Under the pieces are notes generated by a model. The model was not told the origin of the DNA. It ran no database searches and was given only the letters and a program-made list of their open reading frames with translations. 64,000 nt of DNA from an uncultured virus (IMG/VR IMGVR_UViG_3300011474_000007) (taxonomy: Duplodnaviria; Heunggongvirae; Uroviricota; Caudoviricetes). Made by a program: the position numbers and the translations under genes. Where the stretch lies: IMG/VR virus record IMGVR_UViG_3300011474_000007, positions 62,001 through 126,000 of that record. One strand, written 5' to 3'. Below are positions 2,103-28,700 of the stretch, piece by piece; the first letter of the stretch is position 1; each line of letters opens with the position of its first letter.

Positions 2103-3944
2103 ATGGAATATCAAGTAAAAAAAACTAAAATAGAAATGTCTGAAAGAAAGAAGGAAAACTATATTAAACTAGCTCAAGTAATACAATGGGGTAGAAAATA
2201 TCCTGTAAAGTTTGTAGATAGATTTTTTGGAATTGAGCTTTTAGACTATCAAAAATATGTATTTCTAAACAGTTGGACAACTCCATTTTGTGTATGGTGT
2301 CAATGTAGAAACAGTGGTAAATCTACATTAGGAAGTCCTTTTATAATGGCAAAGTCAATACTTGTTCCCAATTTTCAAGGGTATTTATTAGCTGGAGATG
2401 GCTCACAATCAAAAGAGTTGTTTCAAAAAATTGAGAAAATAGCAAAGAAAGAAATAGCCTCTTTTACTGGATTAACTGATATCTTTTATAATGAATTAGT
2501 AAAAAGTGTTAGTAATTCTGATGGTTTTATCCATAATCCGAATTCTTTTGAGTATAAATTATTTAATGGAAGTAAAGTTAATACTTTAAATAGTGTTGCT
2601 AATAACCTAAGAAGCAAAAGAAGTAACTGCAACTTTTATGATGAGGCTGGGTTTATACCAGATGAATTATTTGTTGCTACTGAACCTTTTACAACACAAA
2701 ATAGTGATTTTAGATTGGGTGGAGATTCAGATGTAACTTTATTACCAAGACAATTTCCAAATCAATTAATATATGCTTCATCAGCTTCAAGCGTAGACAC
2801 ATACTTTTTTAAAAAGTATAGGGAGTTTTCTAAAAGAATGTTTTTAGGAGATAAAAGATATTTTGTTGCGGATATAAATAGTGATATTGTTATGAACGCT
2901 ACATTCAATGGTAAAATTTATCCCGTTGCATTAATAACACAAGATAAAATAGATAATGCTACAAGGGAAAATCCTGAAAAAGCTAATCGAGAATATCGAA
3001 ACATATTCTCTAAAGAAGGTGGCGATAATCAAATAGTAAAAAGAGCAACAGTTATAAGAAACAGTTTCTCATATAAACCAGTTTTATTTAATGATACTAA
3101 TAGAAGAATAGTTATGGCTTATGACCCTGCACATGACTATGATAATTCTATAGTATTAATTGCGGAAGAGATTTTTAATGAAAATATAGGGTGGTATTTG
3201 AAAATTTTAAATTGTGTATGCTTTTTAGATATTAGTAAGAAAAGTAAAAAACAATTAAGAACACCTGAACAAATTGACTATATAAAACAATTATTATTAG
3301 ACTATAATGGAAGTCAAAAAGCAGATTATGAAAATATTGATTTATTAATGGTGGATTCTGGTGCTGGTGGTGGGGGACATATAATTGGAGATTATTTTAT
3401 GGAAGACTGGGAAGATAAAAACGGTATAAAACATAAAGGTTTAATAGATAAAGAAGTAAATGAAGAACATGTTTCTAAATTTCCAAATGCAGTAAATAAA
3501 ATAAAATTAGTTAGCCCTAAAAAATATAGAAATGAAATGTTTTCAGCGTTAGAAGAAATGGCAAATTTAGATTTAATAAAATTCACTAAAGATTATGATA
3601 TGAAAGGATATATATATTTAGATGAAGAAAATCAAATGGATGAAGATAATGATTTAAAACAATATAAATTGAGTATTGATGAAGAAGTTTCTTTAAAACA
3701 AATTGATTTATCAAAAGAAGAATTGGTAAACATATATAGATATGAAAATGGTGCATCTGTGAAATATAGTTTACCTCCTGAAAAAGAAAAGAAAATGCAT
3801 GATGACAGAGCTTATTGCTTGGCAATGTTAGCATGGAGATTACAACAATTAAGAAGGAATGAGATAGTAGGTAAACCAAGAAAATCTACTTTAAATATAT
3901 CAGATTTGTTTGGTTTTAGAGCACCTAATATAAGAAAAGTATAA
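2103..3944 (+). CDS. terL: Terminase large subunit
   Basis: Walker A-like CRNSGKST, Walker B FYDEAG, nuclease motifs AYDPA and HDDRAY. Confidence 0.9.
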   Translation: MEYQVKKTKIEMSERKKENYIKLAQVIQWGRKYPVKFVDRFFGIELLDYQKYVFLNSWTTPFCVWCQCRNSGKSTLGSPFIMAKSILVPNFQGYLLAGDGSQSKELFQKIEKIAKKEIASFTGLTDIFYNELVKSVSNSDGFIHNPNSFEYKLFNGSKVNTLNSVANNLRSKRSNCNFYDEAGFIPDELFVATEPFTTQNSDFRLGGDSDVTLLPRQFPNQLIYASSASSVDTYFFKKYREFSKRMFLGDKRYFVADINSDIVMNATFNGKIYPVALITQDKIDNATRENPEKANREYRNIFSKEGGDNQIVKRATVIRNSFSYKPVLFNDTNRRIVMAYDPAHDYDNSIVLIAEEIFNENIGWYLKILNCVCFLDISKKSKKQLRTPEQIDYIKQLLLDYNGSQKADYENIDLLMVDSGAGGGGHIIGDYFMEDWEDKNGIKHKGLIDKEVNEEHVSKFPNAVNKIKLVSPKKYRNEMFSALEEMANLDLIKFTKDYDMKGYIYLDEENQMDEDNDLKQYKLSIDEEVSLKQIDLSKEELVNIYRYENGASVKYSLPPEKEKKMHDDRAYCLAMLAWRLQQLRRNEIVGKPRKSTLNISDLFGFRAPNIRKV

Positions 3945-13800: not shown

Positions 13801-14421
13801 ATGATAAATTTTAGTGATTTGAAACAATCAAGAATAAGAAAAACTTTAGAGTTTAATGGTCAAGAAATAAATATATTAAATCCAACTAAAGAAATTAAAG
13901 AAAAAATAATTGATGTAGTTGGCAAATGTTCTAAAAGAGATAATAATAAGGTTGAAATAGATATAAGTTACGAAGATAATCCAGAATTTGTTAAAAATAT
14001 TTTTCAAACTTTAGTTGAAGGAATAGAGTTTCCAAATGATATTAAAGAATTTGAAATAGTAATGGAAGATCCAATGCCTATAGTAAAGGAAATTCAATAT
14101 GAAATTGCTGATATAATTAGAAGTATTGGAATGGAAAGAGCTTTAGAATTAAAAAATGAAATACATTCTGCAACGGATTTAGCTATGGTTAGCGATATAA
14201 TGAAAGAACTAGATGAGTTTGCAGAAAAGAATAGGGACTTTGAAATTCCTGAAATAGTTATTAAAAACAATGATGAAGTAACACCTAGACCAAAAGCTAA
14301 GCCTAAGAGAAAAGCAACAAAGAAGAAAGATGATAAGGCAGTTGACATAGAGAAAGTTAAAGAAGAAAATGAACAAGTAAAATCTGAAGATGTTGACGGT
14401 AAGGAAAATGGATTTCAATAG
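13801..14421 (+). CDS. Putative tail assembly chaperone
   Basis: 206 aa directly after the tail tube gene; synteny. Confidence 0.5.
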   Translation: MINFSDLKQSRIRKTLEFNGQEINILNPTKEIKEKIIDVVGKCSKRDNNKVEIDISYEDNPEFVKNIFQTLVEGIEFPNDIKEFEIVMEDPMPIVKEIQYEIADIIRSIGMERALELKNEIHSATDLAMVSDIMKELDEFAEKNRDFEIPEIVIKNNDEVTPRPKAKPKRKATKKKDDKAVDIEKVKEENEQVKSEDVDGKENGFQ

Positions 14422-14890
14422 TTTAGATGAATTATATAAATATGTTGAAAAAGCACATGAAGATGTGTCTTGTAATGATGTTCAAGAAGCAATAAAAGAA
14501 GTTGAAAGTGATGTTATAGATAAAGAAGTGTATAGTAAGTATAAACCATCAATATATAAAAGAAGAAAAAAAGAAGGTGGACTTAGCGATGCTAAGAATA
14601 TGAAAACTCATATAAGGAAAAATGGTAATAATATAGAAATAGAAATCACAAATGAAACTCCTTTAAATCCACCAAATGATGGAATAAGTAGAAACTATAG
14701 ATTAGATCAGGCTGTTGAGTATGCTGGAGATTACTACGAATATCCAATGTATAATAGAGATGAGAAAAATTATGCTTATCTTAAGCCTAGATCATTTACA
14801 AAAAAAACAGAAGAAAGATTATCTGTAACTAAAGAACATGAGAAAGCTTATAAAAATACTATGAAATCTAAGGGGATTGATGTAGATTAA
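14408..14890 (+). CDS. HK97 gp10-like tail component
   Basis: VYSKYKPSIYKRR and PRSFT motifs resemble gp10-like proteins; ATG 14408 follows AAGGA. Confidence 0.5.
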   Translation: MDFNSLDELYKYVEKAHEDVSCNDVQEAIKEVESDVIDKEVYSKYKPSIYKRRKKEGGLSDAKNMKTHIRKNGNNIEIEITNETPLNPPNDGISRNYRLDQAVEYAGDYYEYPMYNRDEKNYAYLKPRSFTKKTEERLSVTKEHEKAYKNTMKSKGIDVD

Positions 14891-15109
14891 AATGCCCCTA
14901 TTTTTCTTTAAATATATAGATGTAATAAATTATCAATTTTATTAAAATTCTAATTTGTATATTTAAAGAAAAATTAATTATGACTTTGGTAAATATAGGA
15001 TAAAAATCCTTGAACTTTAATCAACTTTGAGTTAGAAAGAAATCTCGCCACGCTATCTGCCAAGCATGGCTTGTGCAGTATAGTGGCGACTTAACATAAG
15101 GGATAATAA

Positions 15110-15148
15110 ATGAAAAAATATATTGAAAATCAGGGAAAATATAGTTGA
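15110..15148 (+). pseudogene. tnpA: Remnant of Y1 transposase tnpA
   Basis: Mini-ORF MKKYIENQGKYS* matches the C-terminal catalytic Tyr helix (YIENQ) of IS200-type TnpA; lies between the left-end hairpin and tnpB. Confidence 0.6.
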
Positions 15149-15173
15149 TTTATATAAAATAATTTGTTATAAT
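15145..15173 (+). promoter_or_regulatory. Sigma-A-type promoter for tnpB
   Basis: TTGATT-17bp-TATAAT with extended -10 TG. Confidence 0.6.
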
Positions 15174-15201
15174 ATACTTATGAAAAAGAGGTGATTAATT
15201 C

Positions 15202-16662
15202 ATGGCTAAATCAAAAACTCCAAGTTATACTTTAACATTACCATTAAAAATTGAACCTTATCAAGAATATATCTTAAATAAAAGATTTGAGAAGTGCAGA
15301 AAAATGTATAATTCCTGTTTAGGGGAAGCTCTTAAAAGATATAATCATATGATTGAATCTAAACAATATAAGAAGATCAAAAAAGTTAAAGATGAAAAAT
15401 TAAGAAATAAAAGATATGAAGAGTGTAATGAAGAGTATGGTTTAACTAAGAAATCATTTCAAAAATTTGTAAATTCTATGTATAACTATTTTGGATTAGA
15501 AAGCAAAACAGCACAAAATCAATCTCATAAAGCTTTTGCTACTATTCAAAAGTTAATGTTTCATAAAGCTAAAAGAGTTAATTTTATTAAATATAATGAA
15601 TTAATCTCAGTACAAGCTTTAGATAATAGACAAGGAGTGACTTATCGAGATGGTTATATTGTTTGGATGAAAACTAAATTTCCAGTAATAATTAAAAATA
15701 ATGACTTATATGCACAAAAAGCTATTCAAGATAGAGTTAAACTTTGTAGGATATTAAAAAAAGAAATAAAAGGTAAAACTAAATTTTATGCTCAATTAAT
15801 CCTAGAAGGTATACCACCTAAAAAAAATAATAAAGAAATTGGTGAAGTTAAAGGACGAACAGGAAATGGTAAAGTTGGTATTGATATTGGAACGAGAACT
15901 ATTGCTATATCAAGCAAATATGATGTTAAATTATTAGAGTTAGCACCTAATATTAATAATATAGATAAAGAAATTAAATTAATTCAACGTAAAATGGATA
16001 GATCAAAAAGAAGTATGAATCCTAGTAAATTCAATGAAGATGGAACTATTAAAAGAGGTAATAGAGATAGGTGGATATATAGCAATAAATATTTAAAAGC
16101 TAAGGCATTAAGAAAAGAACTATTTAGAAAACAAACTGAATTGAGGAAGCAAGACCATTATAATATGATTAATTGGTTGTTAGCTTTGGGCAATAAATTT
16201 TATGTTGAAGATATGAATTATCAAGGATTACAGAAACGTGTTAAGAAAACTACTATAAATGAAGAAACTAAGAGGTTTAATAAAAAGAAAAGATTTGGTA
16301 AGAGTTTAGCAAACAAAGCACCAAGTATGTTTTTAACTATGTTAGACAATAAATTAAAATATAACGATGAAAAATTGTATAAGATAGACACAAAGAAATG
16401 TAAATGTAGTCAATATAATCATTTTACAGATGAATTTAGCAAAAAAGAACTAAAAGATAGATGGAATAAAGACATAGTGATACAAAGAGATATGTATAGT
16501 TCATTTTTAATAATGAATGTAAATGAAGACTTAAAGAGTGTTAATAGGGAAAAATGTATTGAAACATATGATAATTTTAAAACATTACATGATAAGGAAA
16601 TAAATAGATTAAGAGAGTTAAAGAAAAATGGACATAAATTAATATCTAGTATGGGGATATAA
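15202..16662 (+). CDS. tnpB: TnpB-family RNA-guided endonuclease
   Basis: RuvC-I VGIDIG, RuvC-II YVEDM, RuvC-III QRDMYS; N-terminal R-x-x-YN helix; degenerate Zn ribbon. Confidence 0.85.
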   Translation: MAKSKTPSYTLTLPLKIEPYQEYILNKRFEKCRKMYNSCLGEALKRYNHMIESKQYKKIKKVKDEKLRNKRYEECNEEYGLTKKSFQKFVNSMYNYFGLESKTAQNQSHKAFATIQKLMFHKAKRVNFIKYNELISVQALDNRQGVTYRDGYIVWMKTKFPVIIKNNDLYAQKAIQDRVKLCRILKKEIKGKTKFYAQLILEGIPPKKNNKEIGEVKGRTGNGKVGIDIGTRTIAISSKYDVKLLELAPNINNIDKEIKLIQRKMDRSKRSMNPSKFNEDGTIKRGNRDRWIYSNKYLKAKALRKELFRKQTELRKQDHYNMINWLLALGNKFYVEDMNYQGLQKRVKKTTINEETKRFNKKKRFGKSLANKAPSMFLTMLDNKLKYNDEKLYKIDTKKCKCSQYNHFTDEFSKKELKDRWNKDIVIQRDMYSSFLIMNVNEDLKSVNREKCIETYDNFKTLHDKEINRLRELKKNGHKLISSMGI

Positions 16663-16877
16663 AAACTATATAGGTTTAGAATCGAGCCTTATACTAACGT
16701 TAATGGTGGCATTAGTTGCTTTGTTAGTGAAAGTCTTATTGAACTATAATTAGTGCTTATATGTTGTAATTTATAATGTATTTTATAAATGAGAGTATAA
16801 GAGAAAGTTATTTAGTAAATAAGAACCTGCCAAGCTTTAGCTTGTGCAGAGGTTCAGGTAATAATATATTTGAATTT
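16663..16877 (+). ncRNA. Putative omegaRNA (right-end RNA) scaffold plus flank-derived guide
   Basis: About 195 nt between tnpB stop and right-end hairpin GAACCT...AGGTTC; guide would be the ~20 nt after 16857, by analogy with TnpB systems. Confidence 0.55.
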
Positions 16878-17009
16878 ATAGTGCCAAAAGGGGATTTCAA
16901 TAATGTAGTTGAAAAGTTGGAAACTCCAAGATTAACTAAAGAAGATTTAGATGCATGTAAAAGAATTGCTAATTTATATAAGAAACCATGTAAAAATAAT
17001 TTGAAATAA
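16858..17009 (+). pseudogene. Small antitoxin-like ORF whose 5' end appears displaced by the IS insertion
   Basis: Open frame NNIFEFIVPKGDF...LYKKPCKNNLK begins at the IS right end; the track's ATG (16776) lies inside the omegaRNA region. Confidence 0.4.
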
Positions 17010-17058
17010 TTTGAAAAAGAAAAAGAGCTGTCAAAAGATTAAGAAGGAGGATATGTAG

Positions 17059-17244
17059 ATGCCTACAATATCATTTGATAGAGATATTATTTTAAACGAA
17101 CAAGCTGGTGATAAATTGTTGGATATGTTATCAGAAGAAAGAAAAGAAAGAAAAGAAAAAATAGAAATTGAAGATATAGATATAGGAAGGAAGTTAGCTA
17201 GAGGCAAGGAATTATTAGAATCTTTAATTAGGAGGGAGATATGA
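17059..17244 (+). CDS. Small antitoxin-like protein (61 aa)
   Basis: AAGGAGG RBS; MPTISFDRDIIL N-terminus resembles small partners of GNAT toxins (recognition by eye). Confidence 0.55.
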   Translation: MPTISFDRDIILNEQAGDKLLDMLSEERKERKEKIEIEDIDIGRKLARGKELLESLIRREI

Positions 17245-17441
17245 AAAAGATAATAGATTTCACAACATACTCTCAAAATATAAGAACACAAATAGAGTCA
17301 TATTCCTTATTAGATATGATTATTGACTCAAAAAAGAGAAAAGAAGTCTATGATTATTATGATAAAAACTATCAATCTACTCCAGAAGAAGATGATATAT
17401 GCACTGAAATGAGAGGAAAATATAAGAAGGAAGATTATTAG
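17241..17441 (+). CDS. Small hypothetical protein (66 aa)
   Basis: AGGAGG RBS; ATGA overlap with previous ORF. Confidence 0.6.
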   Translation: MKKIIDFTTYSQNIRTQIESYSLLDMIIDSKKRKEVYDYYDKNYQSTPEEDDICTEMRGKYKKEDY

Positions 17442-17452
17442 GAGGCTTTATT

Positions 17453-17614
17453 GTGAAAAAAATAAGTCAACGACCTAATAACGTATTAAAATCTATAGAG
17501 ATAAGTTCTAAAGAAATACAAGATTTTAAGAAGAGCAAGAAAAAATTCAAATCATTAAAAGAATCTCAACAATTATGGGATAAATGGGTAGAAGAATCAG
17601 AAGATGAGGTATGA
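17453..17614 (+). CDS. Small antitoxin-like protein (53 aa, not in ORF track)
   Basis: AGGAGG RBS then GTG; MKKISQRPNNVLKSIEISSKEIQDFKKSKKKFKSLKESQQLWDKWVEESEDEV; resembles 18302-18460. Confidence 0.6.
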   Translation: MKKISQRPNNVLKSIEISSKEIQDFKKSKKKFKSLKESQQLWDKWVEESEDEV

Positions 17615-17617
17615 TCT

Positions 17618-17869
17618 ATGAGTGACAGATTATCTGAGTTACAAAAAGAATTGCATAATAATCTATATAAGGCTACTGTGGCTGCTGAAGAAAATACTAA
17701 AAGAAATGAAATAGGACAGGTAGTATTCTCAGAGGACGATGAAAAAGATTATGAATGTGAATGGGATGCTATTGCAGGTATATTTAATAATATTGTCAAG
17801 AAGAAGGGCTTGACTAAAGAACAAGTTAAGGACATAGTCAATAATATCAAACAGGAGATAAAGGAGTAA
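17618..17869 (+). CDS. Small antitoxin-like protein (83 aa)
   Basis: GAGGT RBS; KRNEIGQVVFSEDD...EWD motif shared with 17874-18077. Confidence 0.55.
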   Translation: MSDRLSELQKELHNNLYKATVAAEENTKRNEIGQVVFSEDDEKDYECEWDAIAGIFNNIVKKKGLTKEQVKDIVNNIKQEIKE

Positions 17870-17873
17870 TAAT

Positions 17874-18077
17874 ATGTATATAAAAAGATGGATGTGGTGT
17901 AGTCAATCATTCCCGTTCACAAAAGATAAGAAAAAGATGTACATTAGAGATAATAAAGTAAAACTAAAAGATCTATTAATGAAAGATATAAGAACTGATG
18001 ATAAAGGTAGAGCTTTATTAACTAAAGATGATGAATGGATAAAAGAAAAGGAATGGGATGAGTTATATAGAGAATAA
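17874..18077 (+). CDS. Small antitoxin-like protein (67 aa)
   Basis: AAGGAG RBS; RTDDKGRALLTKDDEW..EKEWDELY acidic/Trp C-terminus. Confidence 0.55.
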   Translation: MYIKRWMWCSQSFPFTKDKKKMYIRDNKVKLKDLLMKDIRTDDKGRALLTKDDEWIKEKEWDELYRE

Positions 18078-18096
18078 AAAAGGGGAAAATTTAAAA

Positions 18097-18240
18097 ATGA
18101 CGACACAAATAGCTGCAACATCAACATTATACGGAGAAGAAGCAAAAAAGATTATTATGGAAGCAAAGACTACACCAAGCGAAAAATTTAAAGAAAATGG
18201 TAAAAAATTAATAAAATATTTTGAGAAATTCAAGGGCTAA
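18097..18240 (+). CDS. Small antitoxin-like protein (47 aa)
   Basis: AGGGG RBS before ATG 18097; MTTQIAATSTLYGEEAKK resembles small partners of GNAT toxins. Confidence 0.55.
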   Translation: MTTQIAATSTLYGEEAKKIIMEAKTTPSEKFKENGKKLIKYFEKFKG

Positions 18241-18301
18241 GCAGGAATATAAGTAAGTATAGTTTAGTATTGTAAAAAGTTATTAAAGAAGGATGATAAT
18301 T

Positions 18302-18460
18302 ATGAGAAATATAGTTCAGAGATACTGTCTTGTTTCCGAATCTCTTGAGGAAAGTTTAAAACAAATGAAAGCTATCCGAAGTGGAAAAATTAAAAAAAAG
18401 ACATGGAAAGAATTTAAAAGAGAACTTCAAGAAGAAGATGGAGTGAAAAATCATGGATAA
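18302..18460 (+). CDS. Small antitoxin-like protein (52 aa, not in ORF track)
   Basis: AAGGATG RBS; ESLEESLKQMKAIRSGKIKKKTWKEF resembles C-termini of RelE/ParE-associated antitoxins. Confidence 0.55.
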   Translation: MRNIVQRYCLVSESLEESLKQMKAIRSGKIKKKTWKEFKRELQEEDGVKNHG

Positions 18461-18620
18461 AGTGAATAAGAACATTATGGAGAAATTTTTTGGTATCGAT
18501 GACATATAGCCAATAAAGCTAACCTCATCAGATACAATGGATAAAAATAAGAAAGGTGATTGCTTTGCAGATTGGTATGAAGAAGAACTTGCAGAAAAGT
18601 ATAGGGAATATAATAAGTGA
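18453..18620 (+). pseudogene. Small ORF with an in-frame premature TAG
   Basis: GGAGTG RBS, ATG 18453, TAG at 18507-18509; frame stays open to TGA 18620. Confidence 0.45.
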
Positions 18621-18626
18621 ACTAAG

Positions 18627-18833
18627 ATGTATAACCCATCAAAATTTTATTATAAATATTTCGTACTAGGAGTGATGAATGCTGTGAAAAGATCACTAAA
18701 TATTAACAAATTAGCAACAAAAAATATGACTACTATGTCGTCAAAAGAGGCATTAAAAGATGTTATACCTTTTCAATGGAGTGCAGAAGTACTAAATGGT
18801 AATAAAAATATTATTGTTATAAAAGGTAGGTAG
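18627..18833 (+). CDS. Small antitoxin-like protein
   Basis: AGGAG at ~18668 suggests a later start (GTG 18684); MSSKEALKDVIPFQWS motif. Confidence 0.5.
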   Translation: MYNPSKFYYKYFVLGVMNAVKRSLNINKLATKNMTTMSSKEALKDVIPFQWSAEVLNGNKNIIVIKGR

Positions 18834-18838
18834 ATTCA

Positions 18839-18961
18839 ATGATGGGAAAAAATATCTCAGTCAAAGATAACACAAAAGTTAGCATTAAAGATAAAAGTTT
18901 CACCGATATTATTAAGTGTGGTAAAAAATTAAAAGAAATCGTTGAAAAGGAAGGTTTGTAA
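18839..18961 (+). CDS. Small hypothetical protein (40 aa, not in ORF track)
   Basis: AGGTAGG RBS; C-terminus LKEIVEKEGL resembles FNNIVKKKGL of 17618-17869. Confidence 0.4.
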   Translation: MMGKNISVKDNTKVSIKDKSFTDIIKCGKKLKEIVEKEGL

Positions 18962-19202
18962 AGTAATACATGTCTTTAATAATATGATTCGCTAAAATTC
19001 TCAACAAAACTTTGTATTTTAATATACAATTTATAACTTTTAATAGCTATTCTGTCCGTATTTTTGGTACGAATTATCATCAAGTATATACCAATTTATG
19101 GTAATATATAAATATACTAATTATTTATTATATATAAACGAAATAGATTATAAGCATATTTATTAAATATTATATTTTTATTAAAGAATATTTTGTAAAA
19201 TA

Positions 19203-19231
19203 TTGATATTTTGTACTGGGAGTGGTAAAAT
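19203..19231 (+). promoter_or_regulatory. Sigma-A-type promoter of the GNAT toxin-antitoxin pair
   Basis: TTGATA-17bp-TAAAAT with extended -10 TG. Confidence 0.55.
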
Positions 19232-19313
19232 TATGAATATAAAGAAATGGACAGGCTGTGAAAAGGCAAGGGTGTATACAGCTAAAATAGTTAAAAATAA
19301 GGGGGAAGGACAT

Positions 19314-19466
19314 ATGGCAGTATCTAAAGCATATTTATCTTGTTTAGATGAGGAGGCTACTCAATTATTTAAAAAAGATATAGAATCTGCTAATTTAACA
19401 CTCACTGTAGCAAAAAAGGGGTTAGAATTATTTAAAAAACTAACTTGTGACGAAAGAGATAGCTAA
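19314..19466 (+). CDS. Putative antitoxin of the GNAT toxin (50 aa)
   Basis: GGGGAAGGA RBS before ATG 19314; small ORF 1 nt upstream of the GNAT gene. Confidence 0.55.
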   Translation: MAVSKAYLSCLDEEATQLFKKDIESANLTLTVAKKGLELFKKLTCDERDS

Positions 19467-19467
19467 T

Positions 19468-20016
19468 ATGAAATTTTTTGAAGAAAAGCTGGATGAGGAT
19501 AAACACTTTAAAGAAATTAGTGATTTTGTATGTGGTGAAAATGAATCATTGGAAATATTTTTAAAATGTCATGCAATAAAATATCATAATAACTCTCAAG
19601 GTATGACTTACATAATAAAAATGGATAATAAAATTATTGCTTTTTATACATTAAAATGTAATGCTGTTCAAGTTAAAGATACTAATGGTAAAGAGTGTAT
19701 ACCTATGGTTGAATTAGCTCGACTTGCAGTAGATTCAGATTATCAATGTAAAGGCTATGGTACAGTAATATTTCTTGGATATATGCTACCTAAAATTTTG
19801 CATGTAAGGGATCTAGTAGCAGCAAAAGCCATTATGGTGTTTGTTGAAAAAGAAGATCAAAACGCTATTAATTTCTACAAAAAAATAGGTTTTAAGATGG
19901 CTGATGAAAAAGTTCAAAATCATATAGAGGAATGGTATTCTGAGGGATGTAGTATTATGGTATTGAATTTAGATACAGCAGAAGAAATATTAAGGCAAAT
20001 ACAAGAAGTAAATTGA
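19468..20016 (+). CDS. GNAT acetyltransferase, AtaT/TacT-like toxin type
   Basis: FxCG..LxxFL N-terminus, LARLAVDSDYQCKGYG acetyl-CoA motif, AINFYKKIGF. Confidence 0.8.
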   Translation: MKFFEEKLDEDKHFKEISDFVCGENESLEIFLKCHAIKYHNNSQGMTYIIKMDNKIIAFYTLKCNAVQVKDTNGKECIPMVELARLAVDSDYQCKGYGTVIFLGYMLPKILHVRDLVAAKAIMVFVEKEDQNAINFYKKIGFKMADEKVQNHIEEWYSEGCSIMVLNLDTAEEILRQIQEVN

Positions 20017-20017
20017 A

Positions 20018-20055
20018 GACTCTTAAATATTAAATTATTTAGGAGTTTTTATTTT
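20018..20055 (+). terminator. Intrinsic terminator after the GNAT gene
   Basis: ACTCTTAAATA...TATTTAGGAGT stem followed by T-run. Confidence 0.6.
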
Positions 20056-20266
20056 GCTTAAAATTAAGAAATAAAGATATATTCATAATGTCTTTTTATT
20101 TTATAAATTATAGTTACATATACATAATTATGTTAACTAAATTTAAAGTAAACTTTGAAAGGAGGATTTTTAAATGGGTTTAAGTATTTAAACCTTGTTT
20201 ATAGGGAGAAGCATAAGCACGTAATAATGTGGACAATGCCAAGGAAAGATTTCATATGAATTAATC
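20041..20266 (+). repeat. Degenerate duplicate of the tape-measure 5' region joined to an intron-3 5' remnant
   Basis: 20041-20204 resembles 20787-20941 (RBS and first codons, stop at codon 6); 20206-20266 resembles 24886-24966. Confidence 0.7.
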
Positions 20267-20282
20267 TCAATAATCATAAATA

Positions 20283-20750
20283 TTGTATGAAACTCCAATA
20301 TATGATAAAATTATACAAGAAAGACTATGGAATTGGAGGCATTTTTATGAAAAAAATAAGTTTTTAAAAGCGGTATTATTATGTTTAAGTATTATTTTTT
20401 GTTTAGGATTGTTTGTAGGGTGTGAATCCGCAGAAGAAGCAGGAATGAGACAATTTAAAGAAGAACAGGAGGAAGCTAAAAAACCTGAAAATAAGAAAAA
20501 GAGCATATATTATGGTGTTCAGAAAGAAGTTAAAAATAAATTAAAAGCACCATCTACCGCGGAATTTCCTATATATGATGAATCTTTTGTTGAACAGGTT
20601 GACGATACACATTATACGGTTAATTGTTATGTAGATGCTGAAAATGGTTTCGGTGCAAAACTTCGTTCTAACTATAGTTGTGATATAGAGTATGAATATG
20701 AAGATGATAGTTCTTATACTATAAAAAATCTTATAATAGATCAAAATTAA
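20283..20750 (+). CDS. Lipoprotein, paralog of the intron-3 cargo; natural start ATG 20347 is frameshifted by an A7 run
   Basis: Lipobox LFVGC; KLKAPSTAEFP...YVDAENGFGA; GGAGG RBS at 20335; A7 after ATG versus A8 in the paralog; the track's TTG start coincides with the -35 box. Confidence 0.65.
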   Translation: MYETPIYDKIIQERLWNWRHFYEKNKFLKAVLLCLSIIFCLGLFVGCESAEEAGMRQFKEEQEEAKKPENKKKSIYYGVQKEVKNKLKAPSTAEFPIYDESFVEQVDDTHYTVNCYVDAENGFGAKLRSNYSCDIEYEYEDDSSYTIKNLIIDQN

Positions 20751-20767
20751 AGAAAATATAGTGTAAA

Positions 20768-20803
20768 AGCTTCTAACAGAATAGTTAGGAGTTTTTTATT
20801 TTT
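20768..20803 (+). terminator. Intrinsic terminator after the lipoprotein gene
   Basis: GCTTCTAAC...GTTAGGAGT stem followed by T-run. Confidence 0.6.
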
Positions 20804-20912
20804 ACATAAAATTAATGTAAGAAAGGCATTTTTACAATGTCTTTTTTATTTTGTTTATTATAGGTTATATATATAAATTTAAAGTAAACTTTTTTGAAAG
20901 GAGGAATTTTAA

Positions 20913-22379
20913 ATGGCTTTAAGTATTCAAACCTCGTTTACACTGGAAGATTTTAATAGCTTAAATACTAAAGTCCAAAATCTTTTAAAACAAGTAAGTG
21001 AATCAAGTAAAATAAAACTAGATTTTTCAGATGGAATGTCATTAGATAAGATGCAACAACAAATAAATAAATTACAGCAGGAAATTATCAATGCTAGTAA
21101 ACAGTCAAGTAAAGCTGTTGCATCGTCATTTAGTAAAACAAATTCACAGTTTGAACAACAAATAAAAAATATAGAAAAATACTTAAAAACATTAGGCTCT
21201 AATGTAAATGTAAAAGCAATAACAAATGATTATGGTGGAATAACTGGTGCAATTGCTAAGTATAAAAATGAAGCAGGTAAGGTTATAGAAAAGAATTATG
21301 AATTAGGTGAGTCATTAAAAAAGGTTGATAAGGATGGAAAATACGTTCAGAAATTAAAACTAGTTAATGATTCAACTCTGAAAGATCAAGAGAAAATTAT
21401 ACAATTACTTGAAAAAGAAAGAAAAAAAATAGAGGAAGTTACAGGTGCTATAGCTAAATTAAAAACTCATAAAGATGGTAAAGGAATATTAAGAAGTGCA
21501 AGTATAAGTTATAGTGATGATGATAATAAAAAAATTCAGCAATTATATAAAATAAAAGATAATATTCAGGCTAAGGAAAATACTATAAATAAAGGTTTGT
21601 CTTTTGAAAGAACAGGAACTAATACTATAGATGATATAAAACAAAGTATAAAAACTTTGGAACAATATCAGAAAGCTATAGATAGACTCAACGAGAAGAA
21701 TATAAGTTTAGGTGATGGAAGTCAAAGTCAATTGTTTATTAAGAATCTTCAAGAGGCGCAAACATTAATAGATAGGACAAAATCTTCTGGTGAATCTATG
21801 AGCAGAAGTATCCAAAAGAATATTGATATTTTAATTAGAAAAATGAATCTGGAAAATAAGACAATTAAGCAAACAAGCGATGAAATGAAAAAGAAACAAA
21901 AAATAATGAAAGATGCTCCTGTAGCAATACAAAGCTATGAGAATAAAATAAACAAATTAAAAAATACATATGGAAAATTGGTTAAAGAAGCTAATTTGTC
22001 AAAGTTAAGGAAAGAAATGGCTAAGTTAGCTCATTCAAAAGATCCTGAAGAGTATTCTAGACAATTAAAAATCATAAAAAATGAATATGATAAATTAGAG
22101 AATTCTGTAAATGGTAGTAGTAAAAAAGGTAAGAATGGAATTTTATCGACTATTGGTGAAGCTATAACTAAAATACCTGTTTTGATAAGTGCAGCTGATG
22201 CTTGGATGGAAGCTATTAACAAGGTCAAAGAAGGGGTTAGTTTCATAGCTGATTTAGATAAAGCTCAGACCAATATCTCAATGATAACAGGTATGAATAA
22301 AAGCCAAGTTTCTGATTTAACTGATGAATATAGTAAACTAGCAGGGGAGTTACATACGACTACCAAAGAAATGATGGGT
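20913..22379 (+). CDS. Tail tape measure protein, exon 1
   Basis: AAGGAGG RBS; helical ORF entering a TP901-type core (LDKAQTNISMITG); ends in GGT at the predicted 5' splice site. Confidence 0.85.
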
Positions 22380-22691
22380 GAATAAAGCACTATCGCCCAT
22401 ATAAAACCTCGTGAACCTATAAATATAGGGTGTGCATTTAACATTAAGTTCAAATAGGAAATGATTTGTTAATAAATGTGCTAACAGGGAAAGAGAAATC
22501 TAATCCTGTGCGAAATTATATTTATTTTTAAATATATAATCGTCAAACGACTATCGAAACCATAGCTATAGTGTAAATAGGATTGCTATAGTGAGTAAGG
22601 AAGTAGAGTACATTTAAGGTGAAATTCCTTATTTGGAAGTGCGAGGGCTTAACCTAATAAGCATGATATAGTCTATTAATAATTATTAATG
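22380..22691 (+). ncRNA. Group I intron 1 (no ORF, 312 nt)
   Basis: P1 AUGGGU/GCCCAU with U-G at the splice site; P3 22407-22412/22641-22646; P7 GACUA (22549)/UAGUC (22669); P9 hairpin; terminal G 22691; P10 GCACU/GGUGC. Confidence 0.9.
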
Positions 22692-23077
22692 GGTGCAGAA
22701 GAATTCCTTAGAGCCGGTAGGAGCGTTGAAGAAACTAAAGGATTATTAAAAGCTTCAACTATAGGTGCAGCAATATCTGGACAAAGTAATGAGGCTGTAT
22801 CTGAACAATTAATTGCAATAACTAACGGTTTCAGTAACATGGTTGCAAAAGCACAGAAAGAAGGAAAAAGTTATGAGAGCGTTGTAATGCATGTTATAGA
22901 TACTATTTCAACATTAGATAATGCTTCTGCTACTTCATTCCAAGAAGTGGCAACTGCCATGATGAGAACATCATCTTCAGCACAAATGGCAGGAGTAAGC
23001 TTTGAGACTTTAGCGTCTTATGTAGCTACAGTTAGTGCTACAACAAGGCGGTCTAGCGAAAGCATTGGTGAATCCTT
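22692..23077 (+). CDS. Tail tape measure protein, exon 2
   Basis: GAEEFLRAG...VIDTISTLDN...SIGESF tape-measure core motifs; in frame after splicing. Confidence 0.85.
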
Positions 23078-23191
23078 TAATGGTGGAGGCTTAGTGGCAT
23101 AATACATAAACCACTATAGAAAATTTTCTCTAATATACGGCGAAACTCCAGAGATGGACAACGCCTTGGAAGACAATTAATATAAAATAAT

Positions 23192-23270: not shown

Positions 23271-24389
23271 GTGTATAAAATAAAAAAGGATAACCCCACA
23301 CAATTTAAGATATCATCTGATGAATCTTATTGGATAGGTATAACATCAAAAGGAGATGAGTTTTTCTTTAATGGAGATAATGATGTAATATCATATGTAA
23401 AATCTTGCAATTGGAGAAAAAGAAAAGATGGATATTTTCAAAACTATAAAGGAGAAAGGATAAATAGGGTTGTAGCTAAAGTTATTGATTCTTCTTATGT
23501 AGTAGACCATATAAATAACAATCCTTCAGACAATAGGGTTCAGAATCTAAGAGTAATAACGAGAGCGAAGAACACTAGAAATAAATCCACTAATAAAACA
23601 CATGGTATAGTAGGGTTATATAAAAAAGGTAATAAGTATTATGGAATATTAATGGTCGAAGGTATCAATATTTGTACAAAATTTAAAAATAAAAATGAAG
23701 CTTTAATAGATTTATTAATAGCACAAAAACATTTTGGATATTTGCATAATGAAAACTTATATTATTTAATAGAAAACATAGATAAAAAAACACAATGTAA
23801 AGTAATTGAATGTGTGGAAGAAAAATTAAAAAAATATAAGGCTAGAAAGCCAAAAAAAAATAAATATATTTTATCAGAGGACGGTAAATATTATGTAGTT
23901 TTATGTAATGAAATTGATAATAAAAATAGTTTTAAAATATCTGTAGAAGATAAAGAACTGGTTGAAGAATATTGTTGGAGTATGCATAAATTAAAAAATA
24001 ACAAATATTATATTCATCAATCAAAAGGAGGATGTTTTTATATTCATAGATATTTATATGGGTTGAGAGATGAAAAATATATGAATTATTATGTTGACCA
24101 TATAAATGGAGATAGTTTAGATAATAGAAGAGAGAACTTGATTATCACAGATAAAAAAGGCAATAATACAAATATAATAAGTAAAAAAGGGTATCATAAA
24201 ACAAAAAATGGAAAATATCGAGCTGCCATATCTATAGGAGAATATAATAATAGGTTGTCAAAGGTATGTGATATAGAAGAAGAAGCTAGAAAATGGTATC
24301 TTGATAAAAAACAAGAACAAATGAAAAAAAGAAAGACATGGAAAAGTAAAGAAGAATTAGATTTATATTTATTATCAAAAACAGGTTAG
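23271..24389 (+). CDS. HNH homing endonuclease with two HNH plus AP2-like units
   Basis: VDHINNNPSDNRVQNL and VDHINGDSLDNRRENL motifs, each followed by an AP2-like segment. Confidence 0.85.
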   Translation: MYKIKKDNPTQFKISSDESYWIGITSKGDEFFFNGDNDVISYVKSCNWRKRKDGYFQNYKGERINRVVAKVIDSSYVVDHINNNPSDNRVQNLRVITRAKNTRNKSTNKTHGIVGLYKKGNKYYGILMVEGINICTKFKNKNEALIDLLIAQKHFGYLHNENLYYLIENIDKKTQCKVIECVEEKLKKYKARKPKKNKYILSEDGKYYVVLCNEIDNKNSFKISVEDKELVEEYCWSMHKLKNNKYYIHQSKGGCFYIHRYLYGLRDEKYMNYYVDHINGDSLDNRRENLIITDKKGNNTNIISKKGYHKTKNGKYRAAISIGEYNNRLSKVCDIEEEARKWYLDKKQEQMKKRKTWKSKEELDLYLLSKTG

Positions 24390-25074: not shown

Positions 25075-25437
25075 ATGAAAAAAAATAAGTTTTTAAAAAC
25101 GGTATTATTATGTGTAAGTATTATTTTTTGTTTAGGAATTTTTGTTGGTTGTAGCGAATCAGAAGAAGATAAAGCTAGAGCATATAAGTTTGGCATTTAT
25201 AAAAATACAACAAAACTAATAGAAGGTAAGTTAAAATCTCCATCAACAGCTAAATTTCAAGAGTTCGATGAAAAGTTGGTTAAAGATTTAGGTGGAAATC
25301 AATATAAAGTTTCAGGATATGTCGATTCTGAGAACGGGTTTGGTGCAAATATTCGTTCTAATTGGCATTGTACTGTTACAATAGAAGGAGAAGGAGAAGA
25401 TAAAACAATTGAAAGTAATGATATAGTTATTGAATAA
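25075..25437 (+). CDS. Lipoprotein of unknown function encoded inside intron 3
   Basis: Signal peptide with lipobox IFVGC; KLKSPSTAKF...GYVDSENGFGA; GGAGG RBS. Confidence 0.8.
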   Translation: MKKNKFLKTVLLCVSIIFCLGIFVGCSESEEDKARAYKFGIYKNTTKLIEGKLKSPSTAKFQEFDEKLVKDLGGNQYKVSGYVDSENGFGANIRSNWHCTVTIEGEGEDKTIESNDIVIE

Positions 25438-25497: not shown

Positions 25498-25708
25498 AAA
25501 AAATTAATTCATATAGAATATCCGTAACGACTAGTACGTTTGCCATCCTATATAAATAATAGGATGAACATAGAGTCTAAACTATATGGAAACATATAGA
25601 GAAGTGGTCGGTGTGAAATAATCACCTAAAGAAGTACCATTTCCGCTATAGCAAAATAATTTGTTATAGTCAGTAGCCTTGTTATTATAGGTGAAAGTAA
25701 TAGAGTTG

Positions 25709-28700
25709 ACAGATCAAAGGGAAAACTTTTTGGTTTTAATGAATAATTTAGAAACAACAAGTGATTTATTACAAAAAGTAAAAGAATCAGCAGGCAATTC
25801 TAAAATAAAATTTGATGATAATGCTAGTGAATCTCTTGATGCAAAAGTTAAAAATTTTAAACATGCTTGGGAAGAACTCTATAGGACTTTAATCTCTAGT
25901 GATGCTTTAAAAGCAATAGTAGCAACAGGAACAAAATTAATAGGTGTTCTAGATACAATTGTTAATTCAAGTAAAGGAGTTAAATTAAGCTTTTTAGTAT
26001 TACTTCCTATAATTTTACATATGGTTAAAAATTTTAAACTTTTGATGTTAACAATAATGTCAGGAGAAAAAATAAAATTAGTTGATGTGATTTTTGGAGA
26101 TTTATTTGGCAGAATGTCAAGTGGTATCACAATTGTAGATAGACTCAAAAGTTCATTTAAGGTTCTTAAGTTAGCACTATCTTCATTATTAACAACGCCA
26201 CAAGGTTTAATGTTTTTAGCTGTAGCAACAGCAATAGGTGTAGCAACAGCGGCAGTAATTAAACATGCAAACCATCAAAAGAAACTAAGAGAAGAGAATG
26301 ACAAACTAAAGCAAAGTTATGATGATTTGAAGGCTGCAATGTCATCAAATGACAAAGAAGGTATAAAAAATGCTTCAGAAAATCCACAAAAAGCACAAAG
26401 TGAACTCCAAGAATTGATAAAGAAAAGAGCAAAACTAAATAAGGAAATGGAAAGCGCACCTACTATGAGAGAGGGCGCAACTATACATATTAATTCACAA
26501 TTTAAAGAAACTGAACAAAGAATAAAAGAAATAACCAAAGCTCTCAAAGATAATGGTTACACAGTTGATGAAATCACTGGAAAGGTAAAAGAATTAACGG
26601 AAGCTAGTTTAAGAGCAACAAATCTTGATATGATAGATACTATTAAAGAAACAGGAGAGTCTGAAATAAAGAATAAAGATTCTATTGTGGAATTAGGAGA
26701 TGAATATTTTAGATTAGCTTCGATTCAAAATAAAAATAAAGAAGTAAACCAAAAGTTAACCGATGTCTCAAATGAGCTAAATGGTAAAGTGAAAGGGCTA
26801 ATTGTAACAAAGGATAAGGATGGAAATGTAACAGTTAAAAATACTGGTTTGTTAGCTAAGGAGATAGAAGTCCTTCAAACAGAGGGATTAACTGTAAATA
26901 AGCTAACTCAAATTAAGTTAGAAGCTGGAAAAAGTTCAGCAGAAGTTCAAATCGGTATGACAAAGGTTACTTACCAAGAAGCAAGAAGAAGAATGCAAAT
27001 ATTAGATGAAGAAGCAAAGACCTTAGAAAAAGTTAGTAATCTAACTGATCCAAATGGTACTATGGAAAAAATTACTGGAATGAAAAATCCATTTGGAAAA
27101 GCATATGATTTTAATAGAAGTGAAGCAGCAGAAATAAAAAGTCAAATTGAGGCTATAGATAAAATATATAATGAAGCAAAATCTTCACTTGATGACTTAC
27201 CAGACAAAAATTCTGTACCAAATTTTGCACCTAATCCTGATGAAACAAAGAAAAGTACAGAAGCTACAAAAGAAAACACAGGGGAGACAGACAAGAATAG
27301 AGAAGCCGTAAATAAAGCTAGAGAATCCATAAAACAATATGAATTAGCATTAAAATCACTAGAAATGCAAATGACAAAAAATAATATTGCACTAGGAAGA
27401 CTTTACGAACATAGTGATAGTTATATAAATAAACTAAAAGAAAAACAAAATTTAATTAAACAAGAAATTGCATTAAATAAACAACAAATAGCTACTAATG
27501 GAAAATTAGCTAATTCATTAGGCGCAGTAGGTGGAAGTTATGCAAGTGGTATGGGTAATAGTATTGGTGAACAAGTTGTAAGAAATGCACAACAATATTT
27601 AGGAAGACCATATAAATGGGGAGGAAGTAGCCCAGCTGAAAATTTTGACTGTTCTGGATTAGTTCAATATGTATATAAGCAAGTAGGAATTTCCTTGAAT
27701 AGGACTACATATGACCAAGTAAAACAAGGAACAGCTGTATCTAAAAATCAATTACAAGTAGGCGATGCTGTTTTCTTCGGTAGCCCATCAGCACCACATC
27801 ATGTAGGAATATATATGGGGAATGGAAAGTATATACATTCACCAAAAACAGGTGATGTTATAAAAGTTTCTAACTTAAATAGTAGAAGTGATTATGCTAC
27901 TGCCAGAAGGTATGCAAGTGGAGGAAGTAGTTATCGAACAACTTCATCTAATTATAGTGGAAAATATGCTAGTTATATAAATGACGCAGCTAGTAAATAT
28001 GGTGTATCTTCTGCTTTAATTGCAGCAATCATAAAAGCAGAATCAGATTTTAATCCTAATGCTCGTTCTAATGAAGGAGCTATGGGACTAATGCAACTTA
28101 TGCCAGTTAATGTAAGAGAATTTGGAGTAAGAAATCCTTATGACCCACAACAAAGTATTATGGGTGGAACACAAGAAATATCTAAATACTTAAAGAAATA
28201 TAATGGTAATTTAGATTTAGCTTTAGCCGCTTATAATGCAGGTATGGGTAGTGTAGCTAAAGCGGGTGGAGTCCCAAATTACACCAAGGATTATATATCC
28301 AAAGTTAAAAAGTACATGAAAGGCTATGGTGGAAGCGAATCCTCTATCCATTCAACAATAGATGAACAAATGGACTTAATTGGAAAGTCAATGGATTTAG
28401 AAAAGAAAAACCTTGAACTCCAAGAAGAATTAAACAAGATAAATATTCAAATTCTTGAAGCCAAATTGGGTCAATATGATGATAGAGTTAAATCCATTGA
28501 TAGAACGTTAACTCAATTAAGAACAGATGTTGATTTAGCAGGAAAGAATGATACAACATATATAAATTACTTGTTAAGAATAGATGAATATAGTAATAAG
28601 AAACTTAATACTTTGAAAGAAAAAAGAGCATTTTTAGAAAAAGAAATGAAATCTAATATTTATGACGCAAAAACTTTACAAATGATGCGAGAAAAGAATT

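Follow-up and report, generated by a model that had tools for sequence, protein, structure and literature searches.

A tandem array of candidate orphan antitoxin genes located between the tail genes of a large Clostridium phage

An uncultured virus of the Caudoviricetes (IMG/VR record IMGVR_UViG_3300011474_000007) carries, in the 64,000-nucleotide stretch of DNA analysed here (the window), a run of 11 small genes that are very probably orphan antitoxin homologues. The window comprises bases 62001-126000 of the 157,535-base record, the completeness of which was estimated by CheckV at 79%. The 11 open reading frames (ORFs), named m01 to m11 in their order along the + strand, span 16776-18961 and encode 27-83 amino acids (aa). 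For seven of the 11 (m02, m04, m05, m06, m08, m10 and m11) homologues were found elsewhere as partners of toxin genes, lying directly upstream of the toxin gene or overlapping it on the same strand; several of these assignments are based on two or three loci. The best explanation overall, to which we give somewhat better than even credence, is that the array consists of toxin-less type II antitoxin modules that would neutralise toxins of co-resident elements, competitors or the host.

Architecture and coding potential of the array

A sequence-only reading of this stretch had described about 11 co-oriented mini-genes in tandem, most with their own ribosome-binding site (RBS) and with no toxin-sized ORF among them, and this description is borne out. 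The members are:

16776..17009, + strand: m01, 77-aa ORF, the 5' part derived from an insertion sequence (IS), no Shine-Dalgarno (SD) site
17059..17244, + strand: m02, 61 aa, strong SD site, match to PHROG 28524 (E 7.2e-16)
17241..17441, + strand: m03, 66 aa, start overlapping the m02 stop, fused to m02 in some relatives
17453..17614, + strand: m04, 53 aa, divergent member of the same RelE/HigB2-partner family as m08
17618..17869, + strand: m05, 83 aa, the N-terminal two thirds matching a PemK/MazF partner, with an additional helix-rich C-terminal tail
17874..18077, + strand: m06, 67 aa, paralogue of m05, with an MNIKRW-like start as in the cassette leaders
18097..18240, + strand: m07, 47 aa (60 aa from the ATG at 18058)
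18302..18460, + strand: m08, 52 aa, clear member of an antitoxin family partnering RelE/HigB2-like toxins, the toxin missing here
18453..18620, + strand: m09, frame from the ATG at 18453, overlapping the m08 stop, with a TAG at 18507-18509
18627..18833, + strand: m10, longest ORF 68 aa, conserved core from about 18672-18684
18842..18961, + strand: m11, 39 aa, recombinant

No toxin-sized ORF lies within 16858-18961, where the longest + strand ORF encodes 83 aa. A strict SD core, defined as GGAG, GAGG or AGGA located 4-17 nucleotides (nt) upstream of the start, precedes m02, m03, m04, m05, m06 and m08, i.e. six of the nine starts tested (m09 and m10 were left out of the count), against a background of 181 in 1745 ATGs (10.4%). 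Weaker G-rich sites are present at m07 (AAGGGG) and m11 (GGTAGG), and stop and start codons overlap at m02/m03 and m08/m09.

Relatives of the locus were collected through the neighbouring tail gene (L003 and L004, phage contigs of ~200 kb) and through m05 (L006-L008). Comparison of array content across related phages, proposed in the sequence-only reading as a check, reveals nine of the 11 members in L003 in conserved order, with 57-83% aa identity over the best local segment (only 33 residues for m02). Between window and L003 the pooled ratio of non-synonymous to synonymous substitution rates (dN/dS) is 0.28 over 478 codons (bootstrap 0.21-0.38), and out-of-frame controls, in which the alignments were shifted by one or two bases, give 0.64 and 1.15. 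Individual members range from 0.07 to 0.52, with m05 at 0.13, compared with 0.11-0.27 in three flanking genes, and both lineages compared are without toxins for m04, m05, m06, m10 and m11. The array genes are real coding sequences that evolve under purifying selection.

Curated families do not capture these proteins. None of the 11 has a credible Pfam match (chance-level rows only at E<=1) or an NCBIfam match above cut-off, and the named antitoxin families RelB, ParD, MazE, VapB, DUF1778/TacA, HigA and Phd gave no match above cut-off for any member. The PADLOC hits are all weak and concern m05 (LmuA, E 5.8e-4 and 1.2e-3) and m07 (E 0.0056), and the PHROG scan placed m02 in family 28524, of unknown function, and gave two weak rows for m05. 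No RHH, AbrB, HTH or Phd DNA-binding domain was found in any member by the Pfam scan. Paralogues of the array genes are absent elsewhere in the 157.5-kb record. Within the array, three pairs of shared motifs had been pointed out, two of which reflect true paralogy: m04/m08, the alignment score of which is reached by 0/500 shuffles, and m05/m06 (the motif ending in EWD), reached by 1/500 and bridged by metagenome homologues (E 1e-8 to 2e-10). The third pair, NNIVKKKGL/KEIVEKEGL (m05/m11), did not stand, as it is a 7-residue match outside the 14 best of 66 pairs.

Homologues of the partners of RelE/HigB2-like toxins: m08 and m04

In L007 the gene at 2957-3103 corresponds to m08 plus the leader described below, displays 85-87% identity to m08 over 47 residues and is followed by a gene for a 120-aa toxin (L007:3130-3492). 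Similarly, on pRSJ19_2 an 85-87% identical m08 homologue lies ahead of a 120-aa gene. The L007 120-aa gene has 97 database homologues, several of which are called RelE by JGI or NCBI and some of which carry PF05016. Its Pfam match to ParE_toxin is below cut-off (E 0.0036), and by sequence it matches HigB-2 in the PDB (E 0.002). Its structural model, with a predicted local distance difference test (pLDDT) score of 75, retrieves HigB2 as the best Foldseek match (3.7e-4, template-modelling (TM) score 0.53-0.59), followed by YafQ, RelE and YoeB. By model and by family, the 120-aa partner of the m08 and m04 relatives is predicted to be of the RelE/ParE type.

A profile of this 120-aa toxin found 120 loci in representative bacterial genomes. 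Among the 80 loci retained, 75 contain an upstream ORF of >=30 aa that ends between -120 and +40 of the toxin start. By phmmer (E<=1e-3), m08 matches 72 of the 75 upstream partners (best 2.9e-18) and m04 matches 18 (best 5.2e-14, at L058), and the other ten small proteins tested match 0/75. A hidden Markov model (HMM) built from the 75 partners recovers m08 at 6e-22 and m04 at 7.3e-9. Two partners out of the 75 have PF04014, the MazE/AbrB DNA-binding domain, ahead of a C-terminal m08-like part; a DNA-binding domain ahead of the neutralising part is ordinary antitoxin architecture. The family was found only via the toxin route, the pattern-scan alignment of m08 returning 0 relatives in genome contigs.

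Homologues of the partners of PemK/MazF-type toxins: m05, m06 and, more tentatively, m10

A single metagenome scan for this family recovered three loci. At two of these (L099 and L100) the homologue, of 65 aa, and a PemK_toxin gene overlap, the latter matching PF02452 above the cut-off in both cases (E 1.7e-7 and 4.7e-8), and at the third (L101) the m05/m06-like gene is solitary. The partners at the three loci are matched by m05 at 8e-9 to 3e-8 and by m06 at 2e-10 to 1.5e-9 (phmmer). Database homologues of m05 are in all eight cases the window's own protein or belong to C. botulinum-type elements. The ESM Atlas model of m05 (pLDDT 0.5) gave no usable hit.

A more tentative candidate for this group, m10, matches CST145 of phage c-st (phmmer 4.3e-12), which is followed by CST144, of 132 aa; an equivalent pair occurs in L106 (partner gene at 2669-3070), the conserved partner encoding 132-133 aa across the two. 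CST144 reaches PemK_toxin only below threshold (E 0.0022) and its family has 161 representatives at E<=1e-3. Examined as a MazF, CST144 gave no PDB profile match, and hhalign against the two PemK toxins gave 0.7%.

Homologues of GNAT-toxin partners: m02, and the local pair

CST141 of phage c-st consists of a leader part joined to m02 (61% identity) and is a small gene directly upstream of a predicted TacT/AtaT-like GNAT toxin gene. The c-st open frame after CST141 has no Pfam or PDB sequence match, and the L108 homologue was folded in its place. In L108 a 78-aa m02 homologue (46% identity) stands ahead of a 188-aa gene (L108:2713-3279), close homologues of which carry the NCBI name acetyltransferase (24 hits). 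The model of this protein (pLDDT 89.4) finds GmvT, AtaT2, AtaT, TacT1-3 and KacT as best Foldseek matches (E 2e-8 to 3e-6, TM 0.6-0.77), ranks 1-34 being all GmvT/AtaT/TacT/KacT or an untitled 'bacterial toxin', with Naa60 behind at 2e-5. The m02 partner, a predicted toxin, is on its model nearest to TacT/AtaT/KacT and not to housekeeping GNATs.

The sole complete pair beside the array lies 250 bp downstream:

19233..20016, + strand: a12 and GNAT pair, a12 (19233 or 19314 to 19466) overlapping a 189-aa GNAT gene (19447-20016)

The window GNAT matches Pfam GNAT, and in the PDB its sequence is closest to the AtaT, TacT and KacT entries (6gts 2.8e-9, 5fvj 2.3e-8, 5zgn 2.5e-6). The profile of the m02-partner GNAT family matches it at 1.5e-8. 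The small protein a12 (50-77 aa) has no match to DUF1778 or any other Pfam family, and may represent a kind of antitoxin not yet described for TacT/AtaT-like toxins.

Searches with m03 and with m09 returned only phages and plasmids already found. m07, also present on plasmids pCB111 and pCBH and without relatives in viral contigs, resembles the GNAT partner of L003 weakly (tblastn, 36% over 56 aa, E 0.002). The candidacy of m07 as a GNAT-partner orphan was dropped at an hhalign probability of 4% to the GNAT-partner family.

A PIN-partner homologue and damaged members: m11, m01 and m09

Over its first 33 residues m11 shares 58% identity with the small protein encoded ahead of PIN_3 in L004 (toxin gene at 14292-14747) and in L014; this toxin matches PF13470 at E 3e-14 and TIGR00305 at 46.9 bits against a cut-off of 29.15. 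The last ~14 residues of m11 and its stop derive from an L003-type GNAT partner, the DNA alignment showing the switch at a shared TGTGGTAAAAAA.TAAAA stretch. This recombinant 3' end is the only part that the m11 and a12 families share (hhalign 8%). A query with the PIN toxin gave no match at 1e-6 in 399 scored Clostridia genomes, a sample too small for rare families. When 18917-19000 is aligned with L003 16737-16830, a handful of bases beyond m11 (ATGTC.TTA) look like the beginning of the L003-type GNAT gene, a trace that points to the deletion of a second GNAT toxin gene from the window lineage.

One member had been described as cut by an IS and one as interrupted by a premature stop, and both are identified here. 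m01 is the IS-cut member, because its homology to relatives (53-74 aa) is restricted to residues 28-73 and plasmid-array homology begins at 16858, directly past a TnpB element. m09 is intact on plasmids, where it encodes 55 aa; the window copy is broken by the TAG. In relatives (L003 13860-14226; L010 3794-4143) m01 is preceded and overlapped by a gene of 63-72 aa, here called 72b, which was lost to the IS in the window; it bears the NCBI annotation spermidine acetyltransferase and may be a fragment of a GNAT gene.

A cassette hot spot with a shared leader

In sister elements, complete toxin-antitoxin (TA) pairs occupy the equivalent site between the tail-assembly and tape-measure genes. They include a small gene with PIN_3, a small gene with GNAT, the L007/pRSJ19_2 small gene with its 120-aa gene, and a PHD_like antitoxin (PF12910, E 2.1e-13) with a 72-aa gene annotated as HicA by NCBI in L014. 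A leader of ~130-200 nt (mean column identity 74%) stands ahead of every complete pair at the phage site, whatever the toxin class:

19090..19330, + strand: cassette leader of the window, promoter-like site at 19203-19231, then ATG AAT ATA AAG (MNIKKW)
L003 11650-11900 and 16440-16640; L004 11610-11860 and 13880-14125; L007 2840-2965: leader copies in sister phages

The leader comprises a promoter-like TTGATA-17-TAAAAT and then an ATG AAT ATA .. start, which reads into the small gene without a change of frame and encodes MNI[KER][KR]W followed by a segment rich in lysine. It precedes the GNAT, PIN, RelE-like and PHD-like/HicA pairs of the sister phages. Start codons of the leader type also begin m06, a 51-aa array gene and CST141 of c-st, and leader DNA lies directly upstream of CST145. 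The N-terminal part encoded by the leader (MNIKRW..., lysine-rich) is carried by the toxin-linked copies of the small genes and is missing from most orphan copies. Three roles are conceivable for the leader: a promoter/operator common to the cassettes, an N-terminal module that the small proteins share, or a handle for recombination when cassettes are exchanged. Its GGGAGTGG-N7-ATG segment may be purely a promoter -10 element or purely an RBS. From its genes and its position, the array appears to be a set of toxin-less modules within a TA cassette hot spot of the phage.

The sister phages carry a further element at this site (L003 10539-11348 and L004 10673-11307), in which an ORF of 188 aa lies after tandem direct repeats and matches CptIN (NF047359) at E 3.4e-15, below the cut-off. 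Repeats and CptIN-like ORF likely form a type III TA system, which is missing from the window.

Absence of the toxins and presence of the array on conjugative plasmids

A tblastn search of the 157.5-kb record with the RelE-like, PIN, HicA and CptIN proteins gave no significant match, the best rows covering just 35 residues of the RelE-like protein (E 0.028) and 24 residues of HicA (E 0.037). Profile and family searches of the record and of four plasmids that bear the array detected no RelE-like, PemK_toxin or PIN_3 gene, and the sole match of the GNAT-toxin profile in the record is the window GNAT at 19447-20016, with none on the plasmids. Toxin fragments between the array genes are likewise absent.

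The DNA search recovered 25 Clostridium plasmid records, none of which spans 80% of the query. Overlapping versions of the array are present on pCB111, pCBH, pCLJ and pRSJ10_1, C. botulinum conjugative plasmids of ~260 kb typed MPF_T, and comprise, with variations, 72b, m01, m02, m03, m07, m08, an intact m09 and a long m11. The plasmid array is preceded, on one strand, by a 2.3-kb methyltransferase gene, PspC, a PAPS-reductase-family gene and two small genes. A NADAR gene also lies ahead of the array on pCLJ and pRSJ10_1; these stand-alone genes (L012 3153-3458 and L013 2985-3476) are located ~330 bp (pCLJ) and 500 bp (pRSJ10_1) upstream of it. By annotation, the strand that bears the array also has an SSB gene at a distance of ~24 kb, and on pCBH a replication-relaxation gene lies ~2 kb from the array. 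This plasmid context looks like that of leading-region anti-defence islands.

Function of the array and alternative explanations

The sequence-only reading had likened the mini-genes to partners of GNAT, RelE/ParE, MazF/PemK and PIN toxins and had proposed that homologues be sought next to toxin genes elsewhere. All four classes were recovered, and toxin-adjacent homologues were seen for the seven members assigned above; the likeness was not found for m01, m03, m07 and m09, and for m10 the PemK hit of its partner is sub-threshold. The reading had also described the proteins as lacking DNA-binding domains. No such domain was found in the members and the N-terminal part of the toxin-linked copies is missing; the claim fits only loosely, because that part is not established as DNA-binding.

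If the array proteins are antitoxin modules, they would be produced together from one transcript, and each would bind and block its class of toxin, made by a co-resident or competing phage-plasmid, by a plasmid or by the host. The benefit would be either that abortive infection set off by the toxin no longer stops the phage, or that the cell outlives the displacement of a rival element (anti-addiction). As most orphan copies are without the leader, they would be bare neutralising modules that lack the regulation of a pair, and since matching toxins reside on sister phage-plasmids of the same host group (L004, L007 and c-st), protection against rivals would be their natural use. That the proteins do act as neutralisers of foreign toxins is an evenly balanced proposition. 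A broader proposal, somewhat short of even, is that of a portable multi-antidote cassette: tandem bare modules against RelE-like, MazF-like, GNAT and PIN toxins, without the leader of their toxin-linked relatives, would travel together among the phage-plasmids and conjugative plasmids of the C. botulinum/sporogenes group and help an incoming element to survive the TA defences or addiction of resident rivals. Such a cassette would be a broad-spectrum anti-TA arsenal and a new kind of anti-defence island, made up entirely of captured antitoxins.

Several observations weigh against a role in neutralisation. No toxin-adjacent homologue was assigned to m01, m03, m07 or m09, and the toxin class of the m10 partner is, on its sub-threshold match, not established. 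Antitoxin specificity is generally narrow, and the identity of the members to their toxin-linked homologues is just 35-87%. m11 is without the C-terminal 14 residues of the PIN partner. A distant member of the toxin class of m02 is the window's own GNAT, 2.2 kb downstream, and as the record is 79% complete a toxin could be located in the missing part. The XRE-headed upstream part of the array in relatives was removed here by the IS. The visible shuffling of modules counts on the same side, as do the damage or recombination of three members and the junctions seen in relatives, all of which are taken up below with the explanations that they favour.

The main rival to the arsenal of neutralisers is erosion, in which the array would be debris of former complete cassettes whose toxins were deleted, the antitoxin genes being left as neutral passengers. 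We regard this as unlikely, though far from negligible. It draws on the premature stop of m09, the truncation of m01 by the IS, the recombinant m11 trailed by GNAT-start-like bases, the PIN-like start (MRVVVDT) joined to the middle of m09 directly after m05 in L007, the m03::m05 fusion in P0008 and the complete pairs at the equivalent site in sister phages. In the account of a review, many Klebsiella orphan antitoxins also look like the remains of degraded pairs (PMC7354431). Neutral decay is opposed by the pooled dN/dS of 0.28 over 478 codons between two lineages that are without toxins for m04, m05, m06, m10 and m11, by the retained SD sites and coupled stop-start overlaps, and by the lack of toxin fragments between the genes. 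In addition, phage-plasmids and conjugative plasmids exchange the array as a whole, and the toxins are missing from the plasmids too. Erosion and the arsenal of neutralisers are compatible, as toxin loss may create orphans and selection may retain the useful ones.

Two other explanations are much less probable. Kinship to antitoxin partners could be a mere likeness of short, helical, charged and freely recombining peptides that have another role or none, a view that agrees with the lack of any curated Pfam or NCBIfam match above cut-off, the weak PADLOC rows, the m05 Atlas model (pLDDT 0.5) without a usable hit, the four members left without assignment, the lysine- and glutamate-rich composition, and the module shuffling just mentioned. 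We consider it improbable in view of the specificity of the matches (72/75 partners for m08 versus 0/75 for ten other mini-proteins), their strength (1e-8 to 2e-10 for m05/m06 against the PemK partners, 4e-12 for m10 against CST145), and the fact that every match is to a gene in the equivalent position relative to a toxin gene. Least probable of all is an in-house role, in which the small proteins would work for the GNAT pair of the phage itself or in some other phage process, for example as reserve antitoxins or modulators of transcription, and would not counter foreign toxins. The complete a12 and GNAT pair lies only 250 bp downstream, the window GNAT matches the m02-partner-family profile (1.5e-8), m11 bears the C-terminal 14 residues of a GNAT partner and an XRE regulator heads the array in relatives; against this, kinship to GNAT partners is limited to m02 and the m11 tail, the partner classes of m04, m05, m06, m08 and m10 are missing from the record, the plasmid arrays are without any GNAT-toxin match and a DNA-binding domain was found in no member.

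Relation to known systems

TA pairs are counted among the commonest anti-phage and plasmid-addiction devices, and the counter-measures known so far, e.g. Dmd and AdfN, are single proteins. Orphan antitoxins have been reported as enriched in plasmid leading regions and proposed there to inhibit competing elements or the host TA defence (Samuel et al. 2024, PMC11541004). Like those described in that study, which are co-oriented with orphan methyltransferase and SSB genes, the array genes are toxin-less, reside on a mobile element and, on pCLJ, pCBH and pRSJ10_1, are by annotation co-oriented with methyltransferase, PAPS-reductase-family and NADAR genes. In contrast, the leading-region examples given in that study are single and of known families (e.g. 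hipB), whereas here at least seven stand in tandem, cover four toxin classes, belong to no Pfam antitoxin family and occur also in a phage tail-gene module. AdfN, an orphan DarG1-like NADAR antitoxin of T-even phages, is described as a proven counter-defence against DarTG1 (Johannesman et al. 2025, PMC11825919). It is similarly the phage-borne antitoxin half of a TA defence without its toxin; as presented in that report, however, it is one enzyme that reverses the DNA modification made by the toxin (type IV logic), whereas the array holds many small, apparently non-enzymatic type II-style modules known here from sequence.

According to the review, T4 Dmd acts against RnlA and LsoA, the anti-addiction idea is illustrated by the chromosomal CcdA of Erwinia, and the four orphan antitoxins beside 14 TA pairs on the Bartonella plasmid pVbh are read as anti-addiction modules (PMC7354431). 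The parallel is that the protein of one element neutralises the toxin of another and that the pVbh orphans reside on a large conjugative plasmid. Dmd, as portrayed in that review, shows no sequence kinship with the cognate antitoxins, unlike the array genes, which appear to be antitoxin homologues, and the passages on pVbh do not describe its orphans as a single tandem array common to phages (PMC7354431). Canonical type II antitoxins (RelB/ParD, MazE/PemI, VapB, and TacA/AtaR with DUF1778) are likewise small, and their kind of arrangement is seen in the relatives of the array genes, which lie upstream of the toxin gene and often overlap it, with the m08-like module C-terminal to a MazE/AbrB domain in 2/75; m01-m11 differ in having no Pfam family match, no recognised DNA-binding domain and no toxin alongside in the window. 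A limited literature search found no description of such a tandem array.

The review still treats the role of orphan type II antitoxins as undemonstrated (PMC7354431). An array that brings together partners for four toxin classes, is under selection and is common to phages and conjugative plasmids would offer a natural test case for an anti-addiction or anti-defence role. Moreover, the locus contributes three small candidate antitoxin families new to Pfam, m08/m04 (HigB2-like RelE), m05/m06 (PemK) and m02 (GNAT), which would improve TA annotation in Firmicutes, and it illustrates the exchange of common-leader TA cassettes at one phage site.

Genomic setting and flanking genes

The host phage of the array is a large Clostridium (C. 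botulinum-type) phage. The window has a GC content of ~27% and nearly all its long ORFs are on the + strand. Since the neighbours are phage tail genes, with tail-assembly genes up to 14890 on one side and the tape-measure gene on the other, the array sits between tail assembly and tape measure; a 1728-aa NlpC/P60 and SLT protein and Prophage_tail are further flanking tail genes. The neighbouring features are:

15202..16857, + strand: TnpB-type insertion sequence, ORF 15202-16662 plus right-end segment
20913-22385: N-terminal part of the tape-measure protein, PHROG 4211
22689-23102: PhageMin_Tail

The TnpB ORF matches PHROG 506 transposase (E 5.5e-49) and, below the cut-off, NCBIfam guided_TnpB (E 8e-15), and the element took the place of the m01 start and of whatever once stood upstream of the array. 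Its right end (16709-16858) displays 73-85% identity to Enterocloster phage CB457P1, Clostridioides phage CD1801 and C. tagluense plasmids, and may be the guide-RNA/right-end region of the element; an Rfam scan of 14500-21000 gave 0 matches. The tape-measure function is seemingly split over the ORFs at 20913-22385, 22689-23102 and 25691-30877, and the HNH endonuclease gene that lies among these (23271-24389) hints at mobile insertions within the tape-measure gene. Two paralogous small lipoprotein-like genes, 45% identical, are located at 20283-20750, after the GNAT pair, and at 25075-25437, within the tape-measure region. In the sister phages, relatives of these two genes are located in the cassette island.

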